Of a stretch of DNA of 64,000 bases, positions 5,728 to 40,913 are shown in pieces. Below the pieces are notes generated by a model that was not told where the DNA came from, did no database searches, and worked only from the letters and a program-made list of their open reading frames with translations. The stretch comes from an uncultured delta proteobacterium (GTDB taxonomy: Bacteria > Desulfobacterota > Binatia > UBA9968), in assembly GCA_963745835.1 (NCBI GenBank), contig CAVUZH010000003.1, positions 1,152,001 to 1,216,000 on the forward strand. The letters are read 5' to 3'. The position numbers and the translations under genes are program-made. Position 1 is the first letter of the stretch. Every line of letters begins with the position of its first letter.

Positions 5728-5997
5728 ATGGCTGTCCTGCACATCACCTACAACCACGATCCACAGACTTCTAAAGCGGGCTGTGATGGTTTCTATAAAG
5801 GAATGACGAGCTACCAATACCGGAGGTTGTCTCAATCGCATTGGACGATTAACACAGAGGAGTCCCCGCAAGCTGTTTGGCAGAAACTCAAACAGTACAT
5901 CGACCCGAGTGACTACTTCCTTATGATGCCCCTTGATCCGAGTTGTTTCTCTGCAAAGGACCGGACGGTTCTTAGTTGGTTAGCGGCAGGGCCATAG
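5728..5997 (+). CDS. Small Cas2/VapD-like ferredoxin-fold protein
   Basis: MAVLHITYN...LSQSHWTINT...VWQKLKQYIDPSDYFLM resembles the standalone Cas2-like family pattern. Confidence 0.55.
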   Translation: MAVLHITYNHDPQTSKAGCDGFYKGMTSYQYRRLSQSHWTINTEESPQAVWQKLKQYIDPSDYFLMMPLDPSCFSAKDRTVLSWLAAGP

Positions 5998-6041
5998 GTC
6001 CCGTGCCGGGGCAGCCTGGCGAAAGAGTGGGTTGGAAAAAG

Positions 6042-6188
6042 ATGTTCGGAAGTTTAATTGCCGGTCTCCTTGTCGTCACGTCGGTGCTTTTGGTTAGGCG
6101 TGGGCGAACAAACGTGTGCCGTCGGTGTCGGTCGCGCATTCGGCGGTGGTTTGCACATTGCCCAGTCTGCGGTGCGAAGCAGGACTAA
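6042..6188 (+). CDS. Small membrane-anchored zinc-ribbon protein
   Basis: TM helix followed by CRRC...CPVCG. Confidence 0.5.
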   Translation: MFGSLIAGLLVVTSVLLVRRGRTNVCRRCRSRIRRWFAHCPVCGAKQD

Positions 6189-6638
6189 GGGGCGCCGCCA
6201 GGGTGCGTGCCGAGTCTCTAAAGGAGACCGCCGCACGTGCCGGCAACGAGCACCATTGAAGCGTAGAGAAGCCGCAGACTTTAAAACTGTAAGCAGAGTC
6301 ATGTCACCCGCCTCCATCTTCAGGAGCGTCCACTCAGCTCTAATCACCAATGTCTTTTTTGACCGAGTCCTTTAGCGTCTCCTCTAACTTGTCCAGTCCT
6401 TTTGTGTCTTCGGAAGTCAGCTTTGGTATCTGCTTGAGATCTTTCGCTATGATGCGAATCGCGTCTAATCTCTCAACGATAGTTCAATTCGAGTCCTAGG
6501 CCGTGAAGCTCTTCGGTTGTCATTCTGTGATGTATTACCAGCTCTTCGAGCGCTCTCAGTTGCTGCAGAATTGAAGTCACAGATGTTTCCATGGGTCCCC
6601 TTGTAGCTGAGTTTTGCGTGGATGCTTTGGTGAAAAGT

Positions 6639-8096
6639 TCATGGCTCCCGCAATTTGCTTTCAGTCTCCCTTTGCTTGAACACAGCTTTGTCTAATCCGT
6701 ATTGATGCATCTTACGGGAAAGCGTTCTGACGCCGATTCGGCAGCTCTTTGCGGTTAGACCGATGTTCCCGCTAAGATCATTCAGTTTCTGCGCGAGGTA
6801 TTGCTTTTCCTTCTCTACAAGCCACTGCTTCAACGGGAGCGAAACACCGTGCTCCGATTCTCGAGGGTTGTCATTCGTAATGTCCGGTAAATCGACGTGG
6901 TGAATGCTGTCTCCTGCGTTCATCACAATAGCGCGTTGGAGCACGTTCTGAAGCTCCCGGATATTCCCGGGCCAAGGATAATCCAACAGAAGCCGCAGGG
7001 CTTTCCTTGAAATGGATTTGATGCCTTTCTGTTTTCCAGCGGCGTGGCGGTGCAAAAAGTGATACGCCAGTAAGGGAATATCTGCTTTCCGCTGGCGTAA
7101 AGGGATCAAATGAAGCGGAATCACGCTAATACGATAGTAAAAGTCAGAGCGCATCTTGCCGTCAGCGACAAGCTCTTTTAACGGCACATTCGTCGCGGTG
7201 ATCACGCGCATATCGACGTGGATGCTGGTATGGCCACCTAGACGCTGCACGTGTTGGTCCTCTAGGACCCGGAGTAACTTCCCCTGCATCACCAACGACA
7301 TGCTTTCAATCTCGTCCAAAAAAAGGGTGCCACCGTGAGCTAGTTCGATCTTACCCGCTTTTGATTGAAACGCTCCCGTGAATGCGCCTCTTTCGTAACC
7401 GAACAGTTCGCTCTCCAGAAGAGACTCGGGGAAGCCTGCGCAATTAATCGTCACGAAAGGTTTATCGCGGCGGCTACTATGGCTATGTACAGCACTAGCG
7501 AGTAATTCTTTACCGGTTCCGGTCTCCCCTTCTATTGAAACCGTCATATCCGTAGGGCCTACGGCACGGACTATTTCAAAGATGCGGTGCATCTCAGGCG
7601 TCTTGCTGAGCATTCCCCCAAATCGGTAACCCTCCTTCAGAGATCGTCGTAGATGGCGCATTTCCATCTCGACCCGAGTCTTTTCCAGTGCGATGCGAGT
7701 CGATTCTTGCAAGGAGGTGAGATTGCAGGGTTTCACTATGAAATCACAGGCGCCATTTTTAAGCACATCTATCGCAATATCGATGTCTGAGTATCCGGTA
7801 ATTGCCATTACGGGAACATCAGGATAATTCTCCCTCATCTTGGTTACTAAGTCGGTGCCACTCATGCCGGGCAGTTGAATGTCGGTGACGACGAAATCGA
7901 TGTTTCCCTGAGCTAATTGCGCCAAGGCCTCTTCACCGGATCCAACGGAGACAGCGGTATAGCCCTCATCCGAATAGAAGCGCAAAAGTAGATTGCGCAG
8001 TTCCGGATCATCATCGACAATCAGAATGTGCGGAATAAGCGAGTTGGATGTAACAGTAACCGGAGAAGCTAAAGGTAAAGCATTCATAAATTGCAA
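6639..8096 (-). CDS. Sigma-54-dependent response regulator (NtrC/AtoC family; REC-AAA+-Fis HTH)
   Basis: ILIVDDD receiver, GETGTGKE, ESELFGYERGAFTGA, LFLDEI, WPGNIREL. Confidence 0.97.
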   Translation of the reverse strand: MQFMNALPLASPVTVTSNSLIPHILIVDDDPELRNLLLRFYSDEGYTAVSVGSGEEALAQLAQGNIDFVVTDIQLPGMSGTDLVTKMRENYPDVPVMAITGYSDIDIAIDVLKNGACDFIVKPCNLTSLQESTRIALEKTRVEMEMRHLRRSLKEGYRFGGMLSKTPEMHRIFEIVRAVGPTDMTVSIEGETGTGKELLASAVHSHSSRRDKPFVTINCAGFPESLLESELFGYERGAFTGAFQSKAGKIELAHGGTLFLDEIESMSLVMQGKLLRVLEDQHVQRLGGHTSIHVDMRVITATNVPLKELVADGKMRSDFYYRISVIPLHLIPLRQRKADIPLLAYHFLHRHAAGKQKGIKSISRKALRLLLDYPWPGNIRELQNVLQRAIVMNAGDSIHHVDLPDITNDNPRESEHGVSLPLKQWLVEKEKQYLAQKLNDLSGNIGLTAKSCRIGVRTLSRKMHQYGLDKAVFKQRETESKLREP

Positions 8097-35222: not shown

Positions 35223-36335
35223 TCAACCGACTCTTAACAAGGTGTCGGCCGGTGTGTAATCGGACAGCAACTCGCAACCTTTTTGGGAAACGCAAAACAT
35301 ATCCTTGTTTTGCATGCCGAAGCGTCCGGTAATATAAACCAACGGTTCGAAAGCTCCGACCATTCCGGCTTCGACAATCTCGTCGCCGTAACGGCCCATA
35401 TAGGGCTCCTCGTGGAGATGCAGGCCGATCCCATGGGCGACGAAGCTGATCGGGTCGAAACCCAACTCGCTAAACTTCGCCAGGAAGCTTTGGTAAATCT
35501 CCTTACAGCGAGCGCCGGGTTTGATTAAATCCATCACCAGATATTTGCATTCAATCAAGTTGGCCCAGATTTTCTCCTGCTCGGAAGTTGCCTGCCCGAC
35601 CACAGCGGTGCGGCACACTCCGGCCAAATAACCATTCTTCTGGCCGAAGATTTCCATGCGAATCAGATCGCCTTTTTGCAGCTTGCGTTCAGTAGGTCCA
35701 ACGTTGGGAAATTGGCTGCGTTCGCCGGACGCGATGATCATGAGCTTGTAGTTTTCTGCGCCGCCGGCAAACAGTTCGGTCAATAATCGGCCGGCTAGCT
35801 CTAGCTCGCTGATACCGGGGTTGGCCCGCACCAAGGTATCGCCAATCGCCTTGTCCGTCAGCTTACTGAGTGATCTTAGCAGCGAAAGCTCACCGGCTGT
35901 TTTTATCTGACGGGCCTTATTAAAGACCGCATCGCCGGCGCTCCAGCGGGCATTAGGAAGAAGTCTCTGCAGAGTCGCGAAATCTTTAGCCGGTAGATAT
36001 TCGATCTCGATCGCGAGGCTACCTCTAGCGAGATCAAGATCTGTTAGCGCCTCCGCTAGTTTCTCCATCGGATCATCGCTGAACTCGCGATAAATACGCA
36101 GATCATCGATGCCCGCGTGCGCTTTGACTGTGCTCGCTTCCATGTCAATGGCGACCATGGTTAGCTGCCCATCGCAGGTGACTATACAGATCGCATGACG
36201 CCAGCGCATCAACGATTGCGAAGGCACCACAAATCCGGAGACATAGGTTACGTTCTCGGGAGAGATTGCAATCAGCGCGTCGAGTCCTTGGTTGGCGATG
36301 CGCTGCTTAAGGCGAGCGACGATTTCTTGGTCCAT
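35223..36335 (-). CDS. M24 (Xaa-Pro peptidase/creatinase) family protein
   Basis: ENVTYVSG, RQIKT..E, HGIGLHLHEEP, FEP. Confidence 0.9.
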   Translation of the reverse strand: MDQEIVARLKQRIANQGLDALIAISPENVTYVSGFVVPSQSLMRWRHAICIVTCDGQLTMVAIDMEASTVKAHAGIDDLRIYREFSDDPMEKLAEALTDLDLARGSLAIEIEYLPAKDFATLQRLLPNARWSAGDAVFNKARQIKTAGELSLLRSLSKLTDKAIGDTLVRANPGISELELAGRLLTELFAGGAENYKLMIIASGERSQFPNVGPTERKLQKGDLIRMEIFGQKNGYLAGVCRTAVVGQATSEQEKIWANLIECKYLVMDLIKPGARCKEIYQSFLAKFSELGFDPISFVAHGIGLHLHEEPYMGRYGDEIVEAGMVGAFEPLVYITGRFGMQNKDMFCVSQKGCELLSDYTPADTLLRVG

Positions 36336-36554
36336 AACTAGCGGTGTGAATGCTTCAAGAAACTTGACTAATCAAATGCCATGAATGTCCCGGAGAATAG
36401 CTGCTGTGATTTGGACCGTCAAGGAGAGCAGCCGAACGCTCAGCGTTGTTTTGATATTCTGGGCTGGCAGAAAAAAGGGCTGCACAGTTTCCACGCGCTA
36501 TCTTTAAATTGCAAGTTTATCGACAGTAACTGCGAGCAGTTAGGCTTTAGAGTT

Positions 36555-37673
36555 TTAGTAAAAGCCGGCAAAATGATCGAAAGAGACTTTTCTGTCAGCC
36601 ACCGCTGACCCGACGGCTTGGAGATCGGCAATATACTCGATGGAGTCAAGTTGCTGCACGTTCTTGGGCTCGATGCCCGGAAGTCCGAGACCATCCAGCC
36701 CGTGCCGCGTCAACTCGGCATTGTATCGCAGATAGGTAAAAAGCCTTGCTTGGACAGGGCCTCTCGTGCCGATCATATTGCCGACTTCGCGATCCAGCGG
36801 ATCTCCGGCCAGGCATTTACCAAATACTCTGCATAGAAAATCCTGCTCGTTCAGCGCCGCTGCCATTAATGCCGATGGTATCGAGCTGGCGTTGTAAAGC
36901 ACGTTCATTTCATCCGGCCGCAGGTCGGCGTTCGCGTCCGGGCTCGTTCCGGTCCCAACTGATACAACGAGCAGATTATCTTCGCCCACCGGCCAGTTCA
37001 GATTAAACGCTTCCACCGTGGCCATCAGGAAGGCCTGGAACGCCGGGTTGTTGTACATCGTGATACCGCCATCGACAAAGATGAATTCCTTCTGTCCGAC
37101 CCGCACCACTTCGGGCGGAAAATAGGTTGGCGCGGCGGTACTGGCCCGAACCAACTGCCACAGCGGCAAATTCAGATTGCAATCCGCGCGCGCGCAATCG
37201 TTGTATTTGGCGCGTGGATTATTCGATATCGGCCAAGGTGAATCGGTCGAAGCGTTGCGCATGACCATCATCAGCAACCCGTCGATCTTTTCACTCCCGA
37301 GGGTGGTGTCGGCGCCAAACTCCTGGCGCAGCCGGGTAGAGAGTTTTTGATCTTCGAATTTATGCCGGTAGTAGCGATTCAGTAATGACGCTTTATCGAA
37401 CATCTCCCGGCCGTTTTGCAGGTAAAAGTCACGAATACGATCGATGCTCATTCGCCAGGAGAGACAGGCGGCAATGATCGCGCCGGTGCTGGTGCCGGCA
37501 AAAAAATCAAAATAATCCGCCAGCACAAAATCGTTGCCCCGCCCCAAATTGTGTCGCAGCATATGTTCTATCTTCGCCAGCACTTCCACGGTCAAAATGC
37601 CGCGAATGCCGCCGCCGTCCAGCGCTAATATTTTCTTCGGTCCTATGCTTTTGATCTTATCCGCCAAACTCAT
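36555..37673 (-). CDS. Patatin-like phospholipase
   Basis: DGGGIRG, GTSTG nucleophile, ASTAAPTYF, DGG. Confidence 0.95.
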   Translation of the reverse strand: MSLADKIKSIGPKKILALDGGGIRGILTVEVLAKIEHMLRHNLGRGNDFVLADYFDFFAGTSTGAIIAACLSWRMSIDRIRDFYLQNGREMFDKASLLNRYYRHKFEDQKLSTRLRQEFGADTTLGSEKIDGLLMMVMRNASTDSPWPISNNPRAKYNDCARADCNLNLPLWQLVRASTAAPTYFPPEVVRVGQKEFIFVDGGITMYNNPAFQAFLMATVEAFNLNWPVGEDNLLVVSVGTGTSPDANADLRPDEMNVLYNASSIPSALMAAALNEQDFLCRVFGKCLAGDPLDREVGNMIGTRGPVQARLFTYLRYNAELTRHGLDGLGLPGIEPKNVQQLDSIEYIADLQAVGSAVADRKVSFDHFAGFY

Positions 37674-37686
37674 TGCCGATCTCCCA

Positions 37687-39651
37687 TCACCACAAAGTCG
37701 TTGTGTCGATCACATAAACCCTGCCTGAATATTTCTGCACGGTCTCAAACATATGCTGAGTGCCGCCGGGGCCGTCGCCGCCGCTGCGGTTCCAAAGACA
37801 AACAAAGCGCACCTTCTCTGGCCCCCATGCCAGCGAAGTGTAAAGTTGCCAAAGGTTTAGCCGCGCGAACGGGTTTGCTTCCGCGGGTAGCGGTCCTAGC
37901 ACTTCGGGCATCACCAACGTTGTGGTATTTGGATGAGCTTTAACTTTGAAGTAGCGTTCCGTCCAGTTGCCCGGAGCGAAGGAGACCGACTTCCGCAAAA
38001 ACGTCGGCTCGTCCAAGGCTAATCGTAGTTCGAGTTTGGCTCCGCGCTGAAGGACGGCTTCGGCAAACAACAGGTCGCCGCCGCATGCGCCGCCGCAGAG
38101 AGCCAGGTCCGCGGACCCCGCGTCCAAGTTTTCCAGGGTAGCCGCTATCGCCGCCGCGGCGATTTTTTCTTTATCGGCAGGAAATCGCGGCTCGGGTCGG
38201 TCCGGAGCATCGATCATATGACCGCTGAATAGCAAAACCTGTCGTGGCGCCCAGGTCTTATCCGGTGGATTGAGCCGGCTTAACGCACGATCGAGAACCG
38301 CCAGTCCAGCTTCAACTTCCTCCGGACGAAAACCCAAAAGTCCCAGGAGCTCGAGCTGCTGGCGTGATGAATTGAGTTTGAACCAGTCCTTATCAGCCAC
38401 CGCGACGGCATTTTTGTATGCCGCATCGACCGCTTGCTTCGCCTCCACCAAAACTTCCAATTCGGCTAAGCTGATGCGCGCCCAGTAATCTTTGGGATTT
38501 CTCTCGAGAGCGCCACGGATCGCCCAGCGCACTCCGCCTTCCATTTCCGCGCGCAGCACATCGGCTTTCAGCTCATCGGTCGACAGGTGAGCCAACAGAT
38601 GCAGCAAGGTCACAGCATTGATTCCTGAGTAGTAGTGCGCCGGATCTTTGCGGAATCCGGTGGAGTATGCGTTGATTGCTTCGCATAGGGTTGCGCTTTC
38701 GCTCTCCGCTTCCCGGCACATATCGACCACAGATCTTCCGTCCTGTTTCCAGCAATCCACCCACGCGTCTTTTTCCACGCGCCCGCGCATCGCCCAGCTC
38801 TCGGCATCTTGAGGGAATTCATCGATCAAATCTTCGATGCACTCTTTGGCATCGTCATGCTTTTTTAGCCGGCCGAGTAATAGGCACTTCTGCCGGCGAC
38901 TCTCCAGATCTCTAGGTCGGATCGCCAGCGCCTCTTCATACTGTGCCAGAGCCAACTTGAATTGGCCTACTGAAAGCAGCGCCCGGCCGGCCTTCTGGAG
39001 TGCTTCGAGGTGAAAAACGCGAGTAGGCGCCTCGCCGGCCAGAACAAGAATATCGCCAGGACGATTGCCTCTCCTGGCTATCTCGATCCGGTCCGCCCAT
39101 ACTTCATATTGCTCCCAAAACTCTTTGGCTTCTTCGATCCGGAGAGACTTCCAATCAGGCTCGTCCAAATAGCGTAGTAGATGATAGACTGGACTCACCT
39201 TGCGTCCATACCAGGCATTGATCGTATGAGTAGCGACCTCCGATAAATTTTTCTTGTCATCCTCCAGGTACTGCGCATCGGGAACCGCTGCGGCCGGGGT
39301 GTTTTTGGCGATTCGGTAACGAACCGAACGTTCGGTAAGAACATCGAAGGGCGTTTGATCGCGCCGGCAGGTAATCTGAACTACGCCCCGCTTCCTGAGC
39401 GCATGGCGCACGCCAAGTTCGTACCAGACGTTAGGATTGTCAATGGACAAGTCGGCGACCACGAGATCCGCGAGCAGTAGTTCCTGGAACATATCTGTGC
39501 GGATATTGCCGGCGCGCATCTCTTCATCGGCGCGAAATACTTCAAAGCCCGCGCCTTCCAAAGCCGGTTTGATCAAATCACGAAATACCGCATTGAAGTC
39601 AATATCTTCCTTGATGCCAAAAGGCATCGCGACAAACGCATGGTGCGCCAT
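37687..39651 (-). CDS. DUF4071/deoxyribohydrolase-like + TPR (MAP3K TRAF-binding-like) + SLOG-like protein
   Basis: AFVAMPFG, ADLS..NPNVWYELGVRHA; TPRs; YYSGINA; FSGHMID..RFP, GACGGDLLFAE. Confidence 0.8.
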   Translation of the reverse strand: MAHHAFVAMPFGIKEDIDFNAVFRDLIKPALEGAGFEVFRADEEMRAGNIRTDMFQELLLADLVVADLSIDNPNVWYELGVRHALRKRGVVQITCRRDQTPFDVLTERSVRYRIAKNTPAAAVPDAQYLEDDKKNLSEVATHTINAWYGRKVSPVYHLLRYLDEPDWKSLRIEEAKEFWEQYEVWADRIEIARRGNRPGDILVLAGEAPTRVFHLEALQKAGRALLSVGQFKLALAQYEEALAIRPRDLESRRQKCLLLGRLKKHDDAKECIEDLIDEFPQDAESWAMRGRVEKDAWVDCWKQDGRSVVDMCREAESESATLCEAINAYSTGFRKDPAHYYSGINAVTLLHLLAHLSTDELKADVLRAEMEGGVRWAIRGALERNPKDYWARISLAELEVLVEAKQAVDAAYKNAVAVADKDWFKLNSSRQQLELLGLLGFRPEEVEAGLAVLDRALSRLNPPDKTWAPRQVLLFSGHMIDAPDRPEPRFPADKEKIAAAAIAATLENLDAGSADLALCGGACGGDLLFAEAVLQRGAKLELRLALDEPTFLRKSVSFAPGNWTERYFKVKAHPNTTTLVMPEVLGPLPAEANPFARLNLWQLYTSLAWGPEKVRFVCLWNRSGGDGPGGTQHMFETVQKYSGRVYVIDTTTLW

Positions 39652-40066
39652 GTCATTTCACCTCATCCGTGTCGGCGATCTTAATCCAATGTCGGCCGAC
39701 GTAGCGCTATCATCTTTCCGCACCAATCGGCCTCCGCGCCACATTGAAGTAGCATGTTCCGCTGAAAACCCTTCAGTTAAGATAAATACTCTCAACTAGT
39801 CCGCAAGTATAGTTTTGTTGCCTGGGAAACGCCCGCTAATTCCAACAATATGACTCACGTTGAGCTAAGCTCCAATTGGAATAACGGAATAAGCGGAAGG
39901 AGCCATGATTCTGTGATCCTTCATAACTGAATCGATATGCCTGTGGGCACGGGAACATAGATCGGATTTATCACCTGCCTCGAGAGCCATCCCGTCATTA
40001 CTTTTGCGCTTGGCTTTCTAGCAAAAAATTGCTAACTAATTTAGATTCTCAACTTGGAGGGTTAAG

Positions 40067-40240
40067 GTGAATAGGAAAGAGCTGGAAATGCGCATTTGGG
40101 GCAAGACGATAGCGTCTGCGAAGAAAAAAGGAATTATTTCGGAAGAGGAAGCGCAGTTCCTGCTAGATGAATATCTTAAAGAATTTAAGGTTAAAAATGG
40201 ATGGGATGGAGTAAGTCATTTCATCCCCAGGGTTTTCTGA
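40067..40240 (+). CDS. Small hypothetical protein (57 aa, not in the ORF track)
   Basis: RBS GGAGG, GTG start; MNRKELEMRIWGKTIASAKKKGIISEEEAQFLLDEYLKEF... Confidence 0.5.
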   Translation: MNRKELEMRIWGKTIASAKKKGIISEEEAQFLLDEYLKEFKVKNGWDGVSHFIPRVF

Positions 40241-40448
40241 ATTCTTTACCCGCGAAACGGCTAGCTACTATAACGCTTTGGGTTTCTGCCGTCTTTTGTC
40301 GAAATCAAATTAGCTTCTCGTTTTCTAATGGGGCGTCGATTCCGGACTAAACTTAATTTGTCTTCCGTTCGGCGATCTCTTCGGCTGCGCTCTCACATCT
40401 TCTCGATCGCTGAACTCGCCCGACAACTTGATAGGAGTCTGGCTTCTG

Positions 40449-40913
40449 CTATTGATTTTCCCCGGCCCGAGATTGTTGAATCGCCTCGACAATTGCGTCG
40501 GCTTCAAGACCCAGTTCCAGGGTCTCGATCAGGTCACTGTAACGATCAGGATCTATGATCGCCTTCACTTCCGGCTCGAAGACGTGATATACGGGTAAAC
40601 CCAATTCGACGCCACCGAGCGGCCCGGCATAGGTCGGATCGCCGCGGGTCATGGTTTCGAACTGCACGCGCGCCGCATCGACGTTGGGTGCGCCGAGTAG
40701 CACGACGAGATCATCCGCACCGTATTCCTCTGCGAGTTGTTTGACTCGACCTTGAACCTCAAGGTCCACCGCGCCGGCGGCAGTTCAAACAAAGCACTGG
40801 GTGGTCGCGTAAACTACCTCAGCGCCGAGATTCTCGATGGCCTGTTCAATGGTATGGGCGGGCACCCCGTCGCGTTCGCCGAGGATCGCGATTTTCTTCC
40901 CTCGAAGTTCCAT
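40449..40913 (-). CDS. grdA: Glycine/sarcosine/betaine reductase selenoprotein A (Sec UGA at 40785-40787)
   Basis: GERDGVP, CFV-U-TAAGAVDLE, GDPTYAGPL, LGLPVYHVFEPEVK continuous in one frame across the TGA. Confidence 0.93.

Follow-up and report, generated by a model that had tools for sequence, protein, structure and literature searches.

What does a two-gene unit that couples a relative of the animal ASK1 N-terminus to a patatin phospholipase do between metabolic operons of an uncultured delta proteobacterium (Desulfobacterota; Binatia; UBA9968), and which of its domains makes, reads or executes the signal? The unit lies on the minus strand of a 64,000-nucleotide stretch of DNA (assembly GCA_963745835.1, contig CAVUZH010000003.1, positions 1,152,001 to 1,216,000), hereafter the window, and consists of a core gene, whose product P0001 joins an N-terminal DRHyd domain to a helical TPR-S region and a C-terminal SLOG domain, and a gene for the patatin P0002. 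An original prediction, made from the sequence of the window, had proposed an immune system in which the core protein senses infection, generates a nucleotide signal and so activates the phospholipase. We find that the pair is most likely an anti-phage suicide module of a family already catalogued computationally. Our favoured reading, held with slightly better than even confidence, is a chromosomal, TIR-less DRHyd-TPR (ASK-signalosome-like, Thoeris-related) abortive-infection system composed of a sensor-effector hub and a patatin.

Under this reading P0001 would be the hub, and its constant TPR-S and YpsA-type SLOG part would perceive a trigger, most likely an NAD+-derived nucleotide of the cyclic ADP-ribose (cADPR) kind bound by SLOG, TPR-S or both, possibly together with a phage protein on the TPR. 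The TPR-S-SLOG part would then switch on the DRHyd N-glycosidase (Glu78), degrading NAD+ or another nucleotide, and the co-translated patatin (Ser62/Asp201), hydrolysing membrane phospholipids, and the infected cell would die or halt growth ahead of phage release. Relatives would receive the signal from an adjacent TIR protein; in the window it would come from the DRHyd domain itself or from a TIR protein encoded elsewhere in the genome. By likeness to the SLOG domain of ThsA, TPR-S-SLOG is probably the constant sensing and switching module, with DRHyd and patatin as executioners. The analysis itself shows the identities of the domains, conserved catalytic residues, linkage of the two genes, swapping of partners, presence or absence of the cassette and purifying selection; the ligand, which way the signal runs, switching-on of the patatin by P0001 and a role against phage are inferred. 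The model fits an exchangeable N-terminal slot, a patatin fused in cis, variable death-effector neighbours, and frequent TIR and STAND sensors.

Domains and catalytic residues of the two proteins

The DRHyd/TIR-like, TPR and SLOG calls of the original prediction and its intact patatin motifs were all borne out, and its link to the ASK1 N-terminus is backed by a Pfam match in the TPR part. The AlphaFold2 model of P0001 residues 1-200 (predicted local distance difference test score, pLDDT, 75.1) is flavodoxin-like and matches the MilB CMP N-glycosidase (4ohb, Foldseek E 6e-4, TM 0.48/0.59; 4ohr, VIA Z 12.0, root-mean-square deviation (rmsd) 3.3 over 137 residues), the RPS4 TIR domain (VIA Z 12.2) and nucleoside 2'-deoxyribosyltransferases (VIA Z 11.4-11.6), with generic flavodoxin-like folds close behind; the PADLOC TIR-effector model PDLC00733 grazes the same end of the protein (E 8e-7). 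Residues 71-80 read DNPNVWYELG, in which N72, P73, N74 and E78 are invariant across 40 aligned relatives, and the N-P-N-x3-E spacing is that of the catalytic N80/P81/N82/E86 of BcTpr as given in its preprint (bioRxiv 10.1101/2023.05.26.542521). Two open reading frames (ORFs) on other contigs (C18:209751-210074, 255 aa, and C14:197665-197925, 211 aa) are weakly DRHyd-like, at 33-34% identity over about 100 residues.

Pfam TPR-S (PF20308) matches P0001 residues 231-350 (E 4.5e-19, 69.4 bits against a cut-off of 27.6) and MAP3K_TRAF_bd (PF13281) residues 265-435 (E 1.6e-9, 37.7 bits against a gathering score of 24.1). The best 60 of 149 PDB matches of the full-length alignment are generic TPR proteins, with no ASK1 chain among them. 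The C-terminal model (residues 440-654, pLDDT 91.4) matches YpsA (2nx2; Foldseek E 2.4e-6; VIA Z 15.8, rmsd 3.2, 158/178 residues), and the next VIA matches, about 4 Z lower, are DprA, ShosA, the Moco carrier protein, LOG and TRPM N-terminal domains, all of which, with YpsA, we take to be members of the SLOG superfamily. Its invariant columns are S476-G-H478, D481, R489-F-P491, G524-G-D526 and G629-G-T631. Profile searches of the PDB with the N-terminal or the C-terminal P0001 alignment gave nothing significant, and Pfam scans found no SIR2 domain in P0001 or P0002. An alpha/beta-hydrolase relic at the C-terminus, entertained on account of hormone-sensitive-lipase-type esterase matches (E ~0.1), was dropped when the fold search gave YpsA.

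P0002 matches Pfam PF01734 (90 bits against a cut-off of 27.7, E 3e-25) and retains the oxyanion motif GGGIRG (GGGxRG), the nucleophile Ser62 in GTSTG and Asp201 in DGG. Across 30 partner patatins G20-G22, G25, G60-T-S62-T-G64 and G202 are invariant and D201 nearly so. The PADLOC model of CBASS-type (cyclic oligonucleotide-based antiphage signalling system) phospholipase effectors, PDLC00758, matches at E 7.5e-46, and the NCBIfam profile CBASS_lipase (NF041079) aligns over its positions 2-241 of 317, the C-terminal 90 residues of P0002 falling outside the CapV profiles. A complex prediction for core residues 150-654 and the patatin, each supplied as an alignment, scored 0.00, which is below the mark and uninformative on binding.

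A constant TPR-S-SLOG body with exchangeable partners

The strongest evidence here for joint action of the P0002-type patatin clade and the TPR-S-SLOG module is a natural fusion of the Rosetta-stone kind. In P0157 a patatin stands in place of DRHyd; it shares 53% identity with P0002 across residues 26-371, which span the whole patatin and its C-terminal extension, and passes without a break into a region with 41% identity to P0001 residues 153-654, so that TPR-S-SLOG is kept. The same patatin-TPR-S-SLOG order recurs in P0273 and P0274 (915 aa; five and four member sequences, respectively) and in the shorter P0275, among 687 matches. In P0133 a protein kinase takes the DRHyd position before an otherwise retained TPR-S-SLOG, and in P0217, which lacks DRHyd, the TPR-S-SLOG body is followed by a sigma-54 activator domain. 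Since a patatin or a kinase can replace DRHyd while TPR-S-SLOG stays, DRHyd occupies an exchangeable effector slot, and this arrangement fits better with DRHyd as a predicted effector under TPR-S-SLOG control than with DRHyd as an obligatory signal generator. The fusions also hint at TPR-S-SLOG as a portable switch able to serve effectors of unrelated kinds.

Further domains are added to the complete P0001-like body. Among 20 longer or odd-length representatives of the family, the body is preceded by SLATT_1 in four, AAA_35 plus TIR in two, TIR alone, a ParA-like domain or nSTAND1 in one each, and an extension with no Pfam match in three; it is followed by TIR in one and by a cNMP-binding domain in two.

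These fusions bear directly on the mechanism of the original prediction, elaborated here as one in which P0001 senses through its TPRs and DRHyd turns NAD+ into a cyclic ADPR-type nucleotide that gates the patatin, as cyclic GMP-AMP (cGAMP) gates CapV in CBASS, with SLOG tuning or degrading the signal. That mechanism is a live rival, given roughly half the weight of the favoured reading, and we regard it as possible though somewhat unlikely. The best matches of P0002 are models of nucleotide-gated CBASS phospholipases (PDLC00758, CBASS_lipase), and the TIR-less pair is under purifying selection and must thus work without a dedicated TIR. It also has a precedent in Bacillus cereus, where, according to the preprint, BcTir and BcTpr, a TIR protein and a 415-aa MilB-like-glycosidase-TPR protein, defend against T-series phages; there the DRHyd-TPR protein BcTpr, not the TIR protein, makes a cADPR isomer, N82 and E86 of BcTpr are required for NAD+ depletion, isomer formation and defence, and N82A and E86A abolish NAD+ depletion and defence (bioRxiv 10.1101/2023.05.26.542521). 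The fusion patatin, however, replaces DRHyd and sits in cis to TPR-S-SLOG, so a patatin of this clade can be under control with no DRHyd domain in its own polypeptide. TIR genes are moreover common beside the adjacent-patatin loci (below), P0002 falls under the CapV equivalog cut-off, and its C-terminal extension has no counterpart in the CapV profiles. Type VIII Thoeris, finally, comprises a TIR protein and a 'CMP hydrolase-TPR' effector, ThsI, and its preprint has the TIR protein as maker of canonical cADPR, which activates ThsI as receiver; cADPR in the medium is toxic to cells carrying the system (bioRxiv 10.64898/2025.12.03.692087).

The favoured reading also draws on the partner genes of the wider family. 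A pattern scan of one genome per species gave at least 599 stretches, 587 of them encoding a P0001 relative, and 79 loci were kept. Relatives thus occur in at least 587 species of many phyla, mostly uncultured soil and water bacteria, including Binatia, Nitrospira, many Betaproteobacteria, Chlorobi, Nostoc, Acidobacteriota, Planctomycetota and two archaeal metagenome-assembled genomes (MAGs); a representative library gave 19,607 matches to P0001 at E<=1e-3 and 498 at E<=1e-30. Full-length relatives are present at 65 loci (46-96% identity), those from other phyla, the two archaeal MAGs included, at 46-60%. The position of a patatin gene could be judged at 69 of the 79 loci (nine were not assessable and one short locus shows a patatin start): it is immediately downstream of the core on the same strand at 26, further downstream at seven, upstream at one and on the opposite strand at one, and 34 loci have none.

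A Pfam scan of 28 non-patatin ORFs downstream of the core identified TIR (five), SIR2, caspase, DUF4231/SLATT, a Tle1-like lipase and an MFS transporter (one each), other alpha/beta hydrolases (two) and giant DUF7379-LCAT-CHAT-TPR-S proteins (two). The remaining 14 have no Pfam match, and no PADLOC model matches them; the downstream SIR2, caspase and TIR ORFs match the PADLOC ThsA, caspase and ThsB models as well. The giant proteins measure about 1800 aa and closely follow the core in Thiobacillus-like loci (L061 8114-13474, L064 8089-13656, L070 8153-13519), and the two that were scanned (L061, L064) carry DUF7379 and LCAT-like lipase domains, a CHAT protease and a TPR-S of their own. Upstream of the core are plain TIR, TIR-WD40, TIR-nSTAND1-FGE, nSTAND1-WD40, SLATT, SAM-cyclase-AAA, GAF-HD and calcineurin-like nucleotidase ORFs. 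Such variability of partners is typical of conflict systems. Across 27 core-patatin pairs the distances of the two proteins show a modest positive correlation (Spearman coefficient 0.39, reached by 13 of 2000 permutations), with the caveat that related loci do not count as independent. A second patatin clade, which shares 38-40% identity with P0002, accompanies cores of about 60% identity, so partner swapping has taken place too.

TIR genes form a variable third component. A profile built from 12 Pfam-defined TIR domains of related loci matches outside the core gene at 37 of the 79 loci and nowhere in the window. Matches occur at 17 of the 26 adjacent-patatin loci (three are weak or distant: L033, L040, L055), which makes TIR, core and patatin, with the TIR gene in either order, the commonest full layout; the nine TIR-less ones are L001, L002 and L007, which are the closest relatives of the window, and L022, L026, L030, L032, L052 and L058, with two of the nine cut at the upstream end. 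At some related loci the TIR gene is joined to a WD40 or nSTAND1 sensor module. L003 is the nearest relative with a TIR gene; its core shares 83% identity with P0001, and its genes run core-patatin-TIR. The pair shares with several relatives a row of genes in which an M24 peptidase gene follows the patatin; within it the TIR gene stands directly upstream in L004 and L028 and between patatin and M24 in L003, and the profile finds none in the window, L001, L002, L007, L030 or L032. Given TIR genes at 37 loci, L003 among them, the window represents a TIR-less derivative of a Thoeris-like three-gene layout.

The window's genome encodes six TIR_2 ORFs, all on other contigs. One of these contigs has a solo TIR gene (263 aa; C19:272807-273316, minus strand; 5990-6781 of locus L105) whose product is 46% identical to the L003 TIR over 172 residues and whose neighbours are unrelated metallo-beta-lactamase-fold, STAS and permease genes. 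This TIR protein is a candidate signal source in trans. A rather unlikely reading of the pair is a self-contained, TIR-independent circuit in which DRHyd would make an NAD+-derived nucleotide, SLOG would read it as a feed-forward switch and TPR-S would license the patatin. If so, Thoeris-like immunity could run without any TIR, and the DRHyd-TPR module of ASK1 would descend from an immune switch that both made and read nucleotides.

Inheritance and genomic setting

The ORFs and the spacer, read directly, place the two genes where they had been predicted, and the location between metabolic genes holds: on one side is a glycine/sarcosine/betaine reductase cluster (GrdA, DUF5940, Gly_reductase, GRDB), on the other are M24 peptidase/creatinase-like, MR_MLE enolase-family and luciferase-like genes. 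L001, L007, L002, L003, L004, L022 and L032 all retain the order patatin, M24 peptidase, MR_MLE, luciferase-like, and in L030 an M24 start also follows the patatin; core identity to P0001 across these loci falls from 96% to 62%. The unpublished G018 locus is in agreement, though no conclusion is drawn from it. The ratio of nonsynonymous to synonymous substitution rates (dN/dS) between the window and its TIR-less relative L001 is 0.14 for the core, 0.12 for the patatin and 0.12 for the M24 gene; against L002, likewise TIR-less, the corresponding values are 0.11, 0.08 and 0.07. The dN and dS values themselves are alike across the three genes. Low dN/dS and shared M24 synteny together mean that the pair has been vertically inherited and kept functional in the window's lineage. 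We reject a recently transferred island on account of the flank-like G+C content and substitution rates equal to those of M24.

These figures also make it very improbable that the pair is a decaying remnant, inert since the loss of its TIR gene and with erosion yet to come. Loss of a TIR gene in the window's lineage is plausible, as the nearest TIR-bearing relatives (L003, L004, L028) share the M24 synteny, and one genome of the same genus (G006, contig C13:259933-261896) has its core split into three overlapping fragments (residues 1-37, which include a TGA, 32-305 and 297-654), either a pseudogene or an assembly error. Against this, both genes show a dN/dS of about 0.1 when TIR-less genomes are compared, every catalytic and ligand motif is preserved, and the TIR-less form is kept in at least six loci of differing divergence (L001, L002, L007, L022, L030, L032; L022 was judged without upstream sequence).

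Presence of the pair is patchy among relatives. Full-length copies were found in seven of 41 genomes searched (the window's own and six relatives), partial copies at contig ends in two further genomes and the three-piece copy in G006; two sister families (16 genomes) gave nothing beyond a weak partial match to the core. In the family relative G019 (96% complete, no core match) the gene row reads FAD-oxidoreductase, short-chain dehydrogenase/reductase (SDR), a 124-nt gap and M24, and L030 and L032 have core and patatin inserted between the SDR and M24 genes of that row; in L027 the core follows FAD-oxidoreductase and SDR, with no patatin in the locus. Set against L030 and L032, G019 shows the cassette to be cleanly present or absent at a single site, and the pair is accessory. 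Patchy spread, the cassette insertion or deletion and the variable effector partners uphold the view of a two-gene unit of conflict or immune type. Vertical inheritance in core synteny, which the original prediction had named as telling against itself, is indeed seen beside the same M24 gene and at an M24-like rate, but the unit is missing from the G019 site and scattered across phyla.

Several observations weigh against the favoured reading. The pair is vertically inherited next to the M24 gene, its G+C content equals that of the flanks, no known defence gene stands next to it within the window, and it is outside any defence island. Together with the stable chromosomal site beside metabolic genes across relatives, substitution rates the same as those of the neighbouring M24 gene, and the lack of a directly adjoining mobile-element gene (the nearest, an IS110 transposase, is 6 kb off), these features speak for a housekeeping regulator of stress or lipid remodelling, a counterpart of ASK1 in which the phospholipase would be controlled by the NAD+ or nucleotide state of the cell. 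We consider such a role improbable: full-length copies occur in so few of the genomes searched, with at most a weak partial match in the sister families, the exact cassette is present or absent at one site, relatives at 46-60% identity cross phyla to archaeal MAGs, the partners are classic death effectors with TIR-STAND sensors nearby, and some relatives are found on conjugative plasmids beside insertion sequence (IS) elements. Both the housekeeping and the remnant explanation are made less likely by the patchy occurrence, the cassette indel, the range of effectors and the low dN/dS.

The other counterpoints concern mechanism and classification. No TIR gene was found in the operon or on the window's contig, and the favoured reading thus leaves the origin of the signal in the TIR-less form unexplained. 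Glu78 is a putative catalytic residue, the proposed counterpart of the catalytic Glu103 of MilB on the strength of motif identity with BcTpr and the fold matches. P0002 reaches 121.8 bits with CBASS_lipase (E 3.3e-35), below the cut-off of 200. PADLOC, proposed as a check, matches both components (PDLC00733 and PDLC00758), but none of its models identifies them jointly as a system. The two preprints are at odds over the DRHyd-TPR protein, which is the maker of the cADPR-type signal in one (BcTpr) and its receiver in the other (ThsI), and both cover the TIR-linked, SLOG-less form and neither the SLOG-fused nor the patatin-linked one.

Table 1. Features of the pair and its surroundings, in positions of the window
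Feature	Position	Strand	Basis or detail
Core gene P0001, 654 aa	37687-39651	minus	ORF and translation
N-terminal DRHyd (MilB / nucleoside deoxyribosyltransferase / TIR-like), residues ~1-150	39202-39651	minus	AlphaFold2 model, fold matches, invariant motif
Helical TPR-S / ASK1-type TPR region, residues ~205-450	38302-39039	minus	Pfam PF20308 and PF13281
C-terminal YpsA-clade SLOG, residues ~465-654	37690-38259	minus	AlphaFold2 model, Foldseek, VIA, invariant columns
Intergenic spacer, 13 nt	37674-37686	minus	reads TGGGAGATCGGCA, sequence read directly
Patatin gene P0002, 372 aa	36555-37673	minus	ORF and translation
Terminator-like hairpin past patatin stop codon	36482-36496	minus	weak, consensus match only
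57-aa ORF	40067-40240	plus	divergent from core gene
GrdA (glycine reductase selenoprotein A) gene	40449-40913	minus	in-frame TGA at 40785-40787, context CFV-TGA-TAAG
Component B ORFs, 434-443 aa, similar to one another	42749-44053, 47162-48469, 49925-51256		
IS110-family transposase gene	45629-46855	minus	DEDD_Tnp_IS110 and Transposase_20

A GGAG Shine-Dalgarno-like core lies inside the spacer, ahead of the patatin ATG, and suggests co-transcription and coupled translation of core and patatin. The hairpin past the patatin stop codon is only a hint that the pair may be transcribed separately from the M24 gene; promoter and terminator consensus scans of 36200-40900 gave site counts not above those of shuffles. 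Short contigs from all four soil or rhizosphere RNA libraries match pieces of both genes, a weak hint of expression given that DNA carry-over is possible. They leave the gene junction (37640-37773) uncovered with no bridging contig, which says nothing against co-transcription.

The small divergent ORF occupies an 800-nt, AT-richer gap upstream of the core gene. Its protein is identical, apart from the start codon, in L001, L002, L007 and three same-genus loci; the nucleotide differences fall mostly at third codon positions, and the flanking intergenic DNA has diverged. No Pfam family matches it, no copy was found next to core genes of other genera, and it shows the deepest RNA-library contig coverage of the stretch in two runs. 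Beyond it, ORF lists give the downstream part of GrdA alone, owing to the in-frame TGA, and the IS110-family gene stands between paralogous glycine/sarcosine/betaine reductase gene sets.

Comparison with known systems

The nearest catalogued relatives are the prokaryotic ASK-signalosome-like DRHyd-TPR systems, for which Burroughs and Aravind (J Bacteriol 2020) are credited with the computational description of the core and of its relation to the N-terminus of ASK1, and which fuse a DRHyd-like N-glycosidase domain to an ASK1-type TPR as P0001 does. Numbers here are much larger than in that catalogue, with relatives in at least 587 species and a patatin adjacent to the core at 26 of the 69 assessable loci; the 78 operons of the 2020 data set are reported to include 28 Tir-Tpr, five YpsA-Tpr and four Patatin-Tpr assemblies (bioRxiv 10.1101/2023.05.26.542521). 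Apart from that count of four, our literature search found no experimental work on a patatin-linked or SLOG-fused DRHyd-TPR system.

BcTpr and ThsI, as described in their preprints, share with P0001 a MilB-like glycosidase with N-P-N-x3-E followed by TPRs. They differ in having about 415-450 aa, no SLOG domain, and an operon with a TIR gene and without a patatin, whereas the window has SLOG and patatin and no TIR. The layout of these validated systems is also that of a locus on a conjugative Agrobacterium plasmid, where a SLOG-less, 447-aa 'TRAFs-binding domain' protein, 32% identical to P0001 residues 1-401 and retaining N-x-N-V-x-Y-E-L-G-V-R-H-A, is encoded close to a TIR gene, with a DUF4231 gene adjoining it and IS elements alongside. 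On a conjugative plasmid of Rhizobium leguminosarum (L107, CP050566.1 28708-39637) split core-like ORFs, DUF4231, DUF3380, patatin and DUF4071 stand in a row by an IS4 transposase. Experiments on the DRHyd-TPR family are recent, with two preprints that addressed the TIR-linked, SLOG-less form; the SLOG-fused form occurs widely, in at least 587 species, and frequently has a patatin at its side. With both genes under purifying selection after TIR loss, the window offers a natural test case for the direction of signalling, that is, for which domain is maker and which is reader.

Type I Thoeris supplies the analogy for the SLOG domain: in ThsA (SIR2-SLOG), according to the type VIII preprint, SLOG reads a TIR-made cyclic ADPR isomer and releases the NAD+-degrading domain of the same protein (bioRxiv 10.64898/2025.12.03.692087). 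Only this sensor logic is shared with P0001. The pair has neither SIR2 nor an adjacent TIR, the SLOG of P0001 is of the YpsA clade, a long TPR-S separates it from the enzyme, and that enzyme is DRHyd rather than SIR2; ThsA structures are not among the listed fold matches of the SLOG model. One core relative, L053, does have a downstream SIR2 gene that matches ThsA models.

CBASS with CapV likewise uses a patatin as its cell-killing effector, and P0002 is nearest to CBASS phospholipase models. It stays under the CapV equivalog cut-off with its C-terminal part unmatched, and the original prediction was right that no cGAS/DncV-like nucleotidyltransferase (CD-NTase) is present: SMODS/CD-NTase PF18144 has no match anywhere in the window's 97.1%-complete genome, which rules out CBASS. 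The pair is therefore neither CBASS nor Thoeris in the strict sense.

The animal protein ASK1 (MAP3K5) is the remaining comparison. PF13281, a model built on a region of ASK1, matches the TPR part of P0001 above its cut-off; P0001 has no kinase, whereas ASK1 has neither SLOG nor a patatin partner. In the bacterial relative P0133 a protein kinase is fused to TPR-S-SLOG. A TPR-S-SLOG portable switch, if that is what this module is, would bear on the possible regulation of the homologous N-terminus of animal ASK1.

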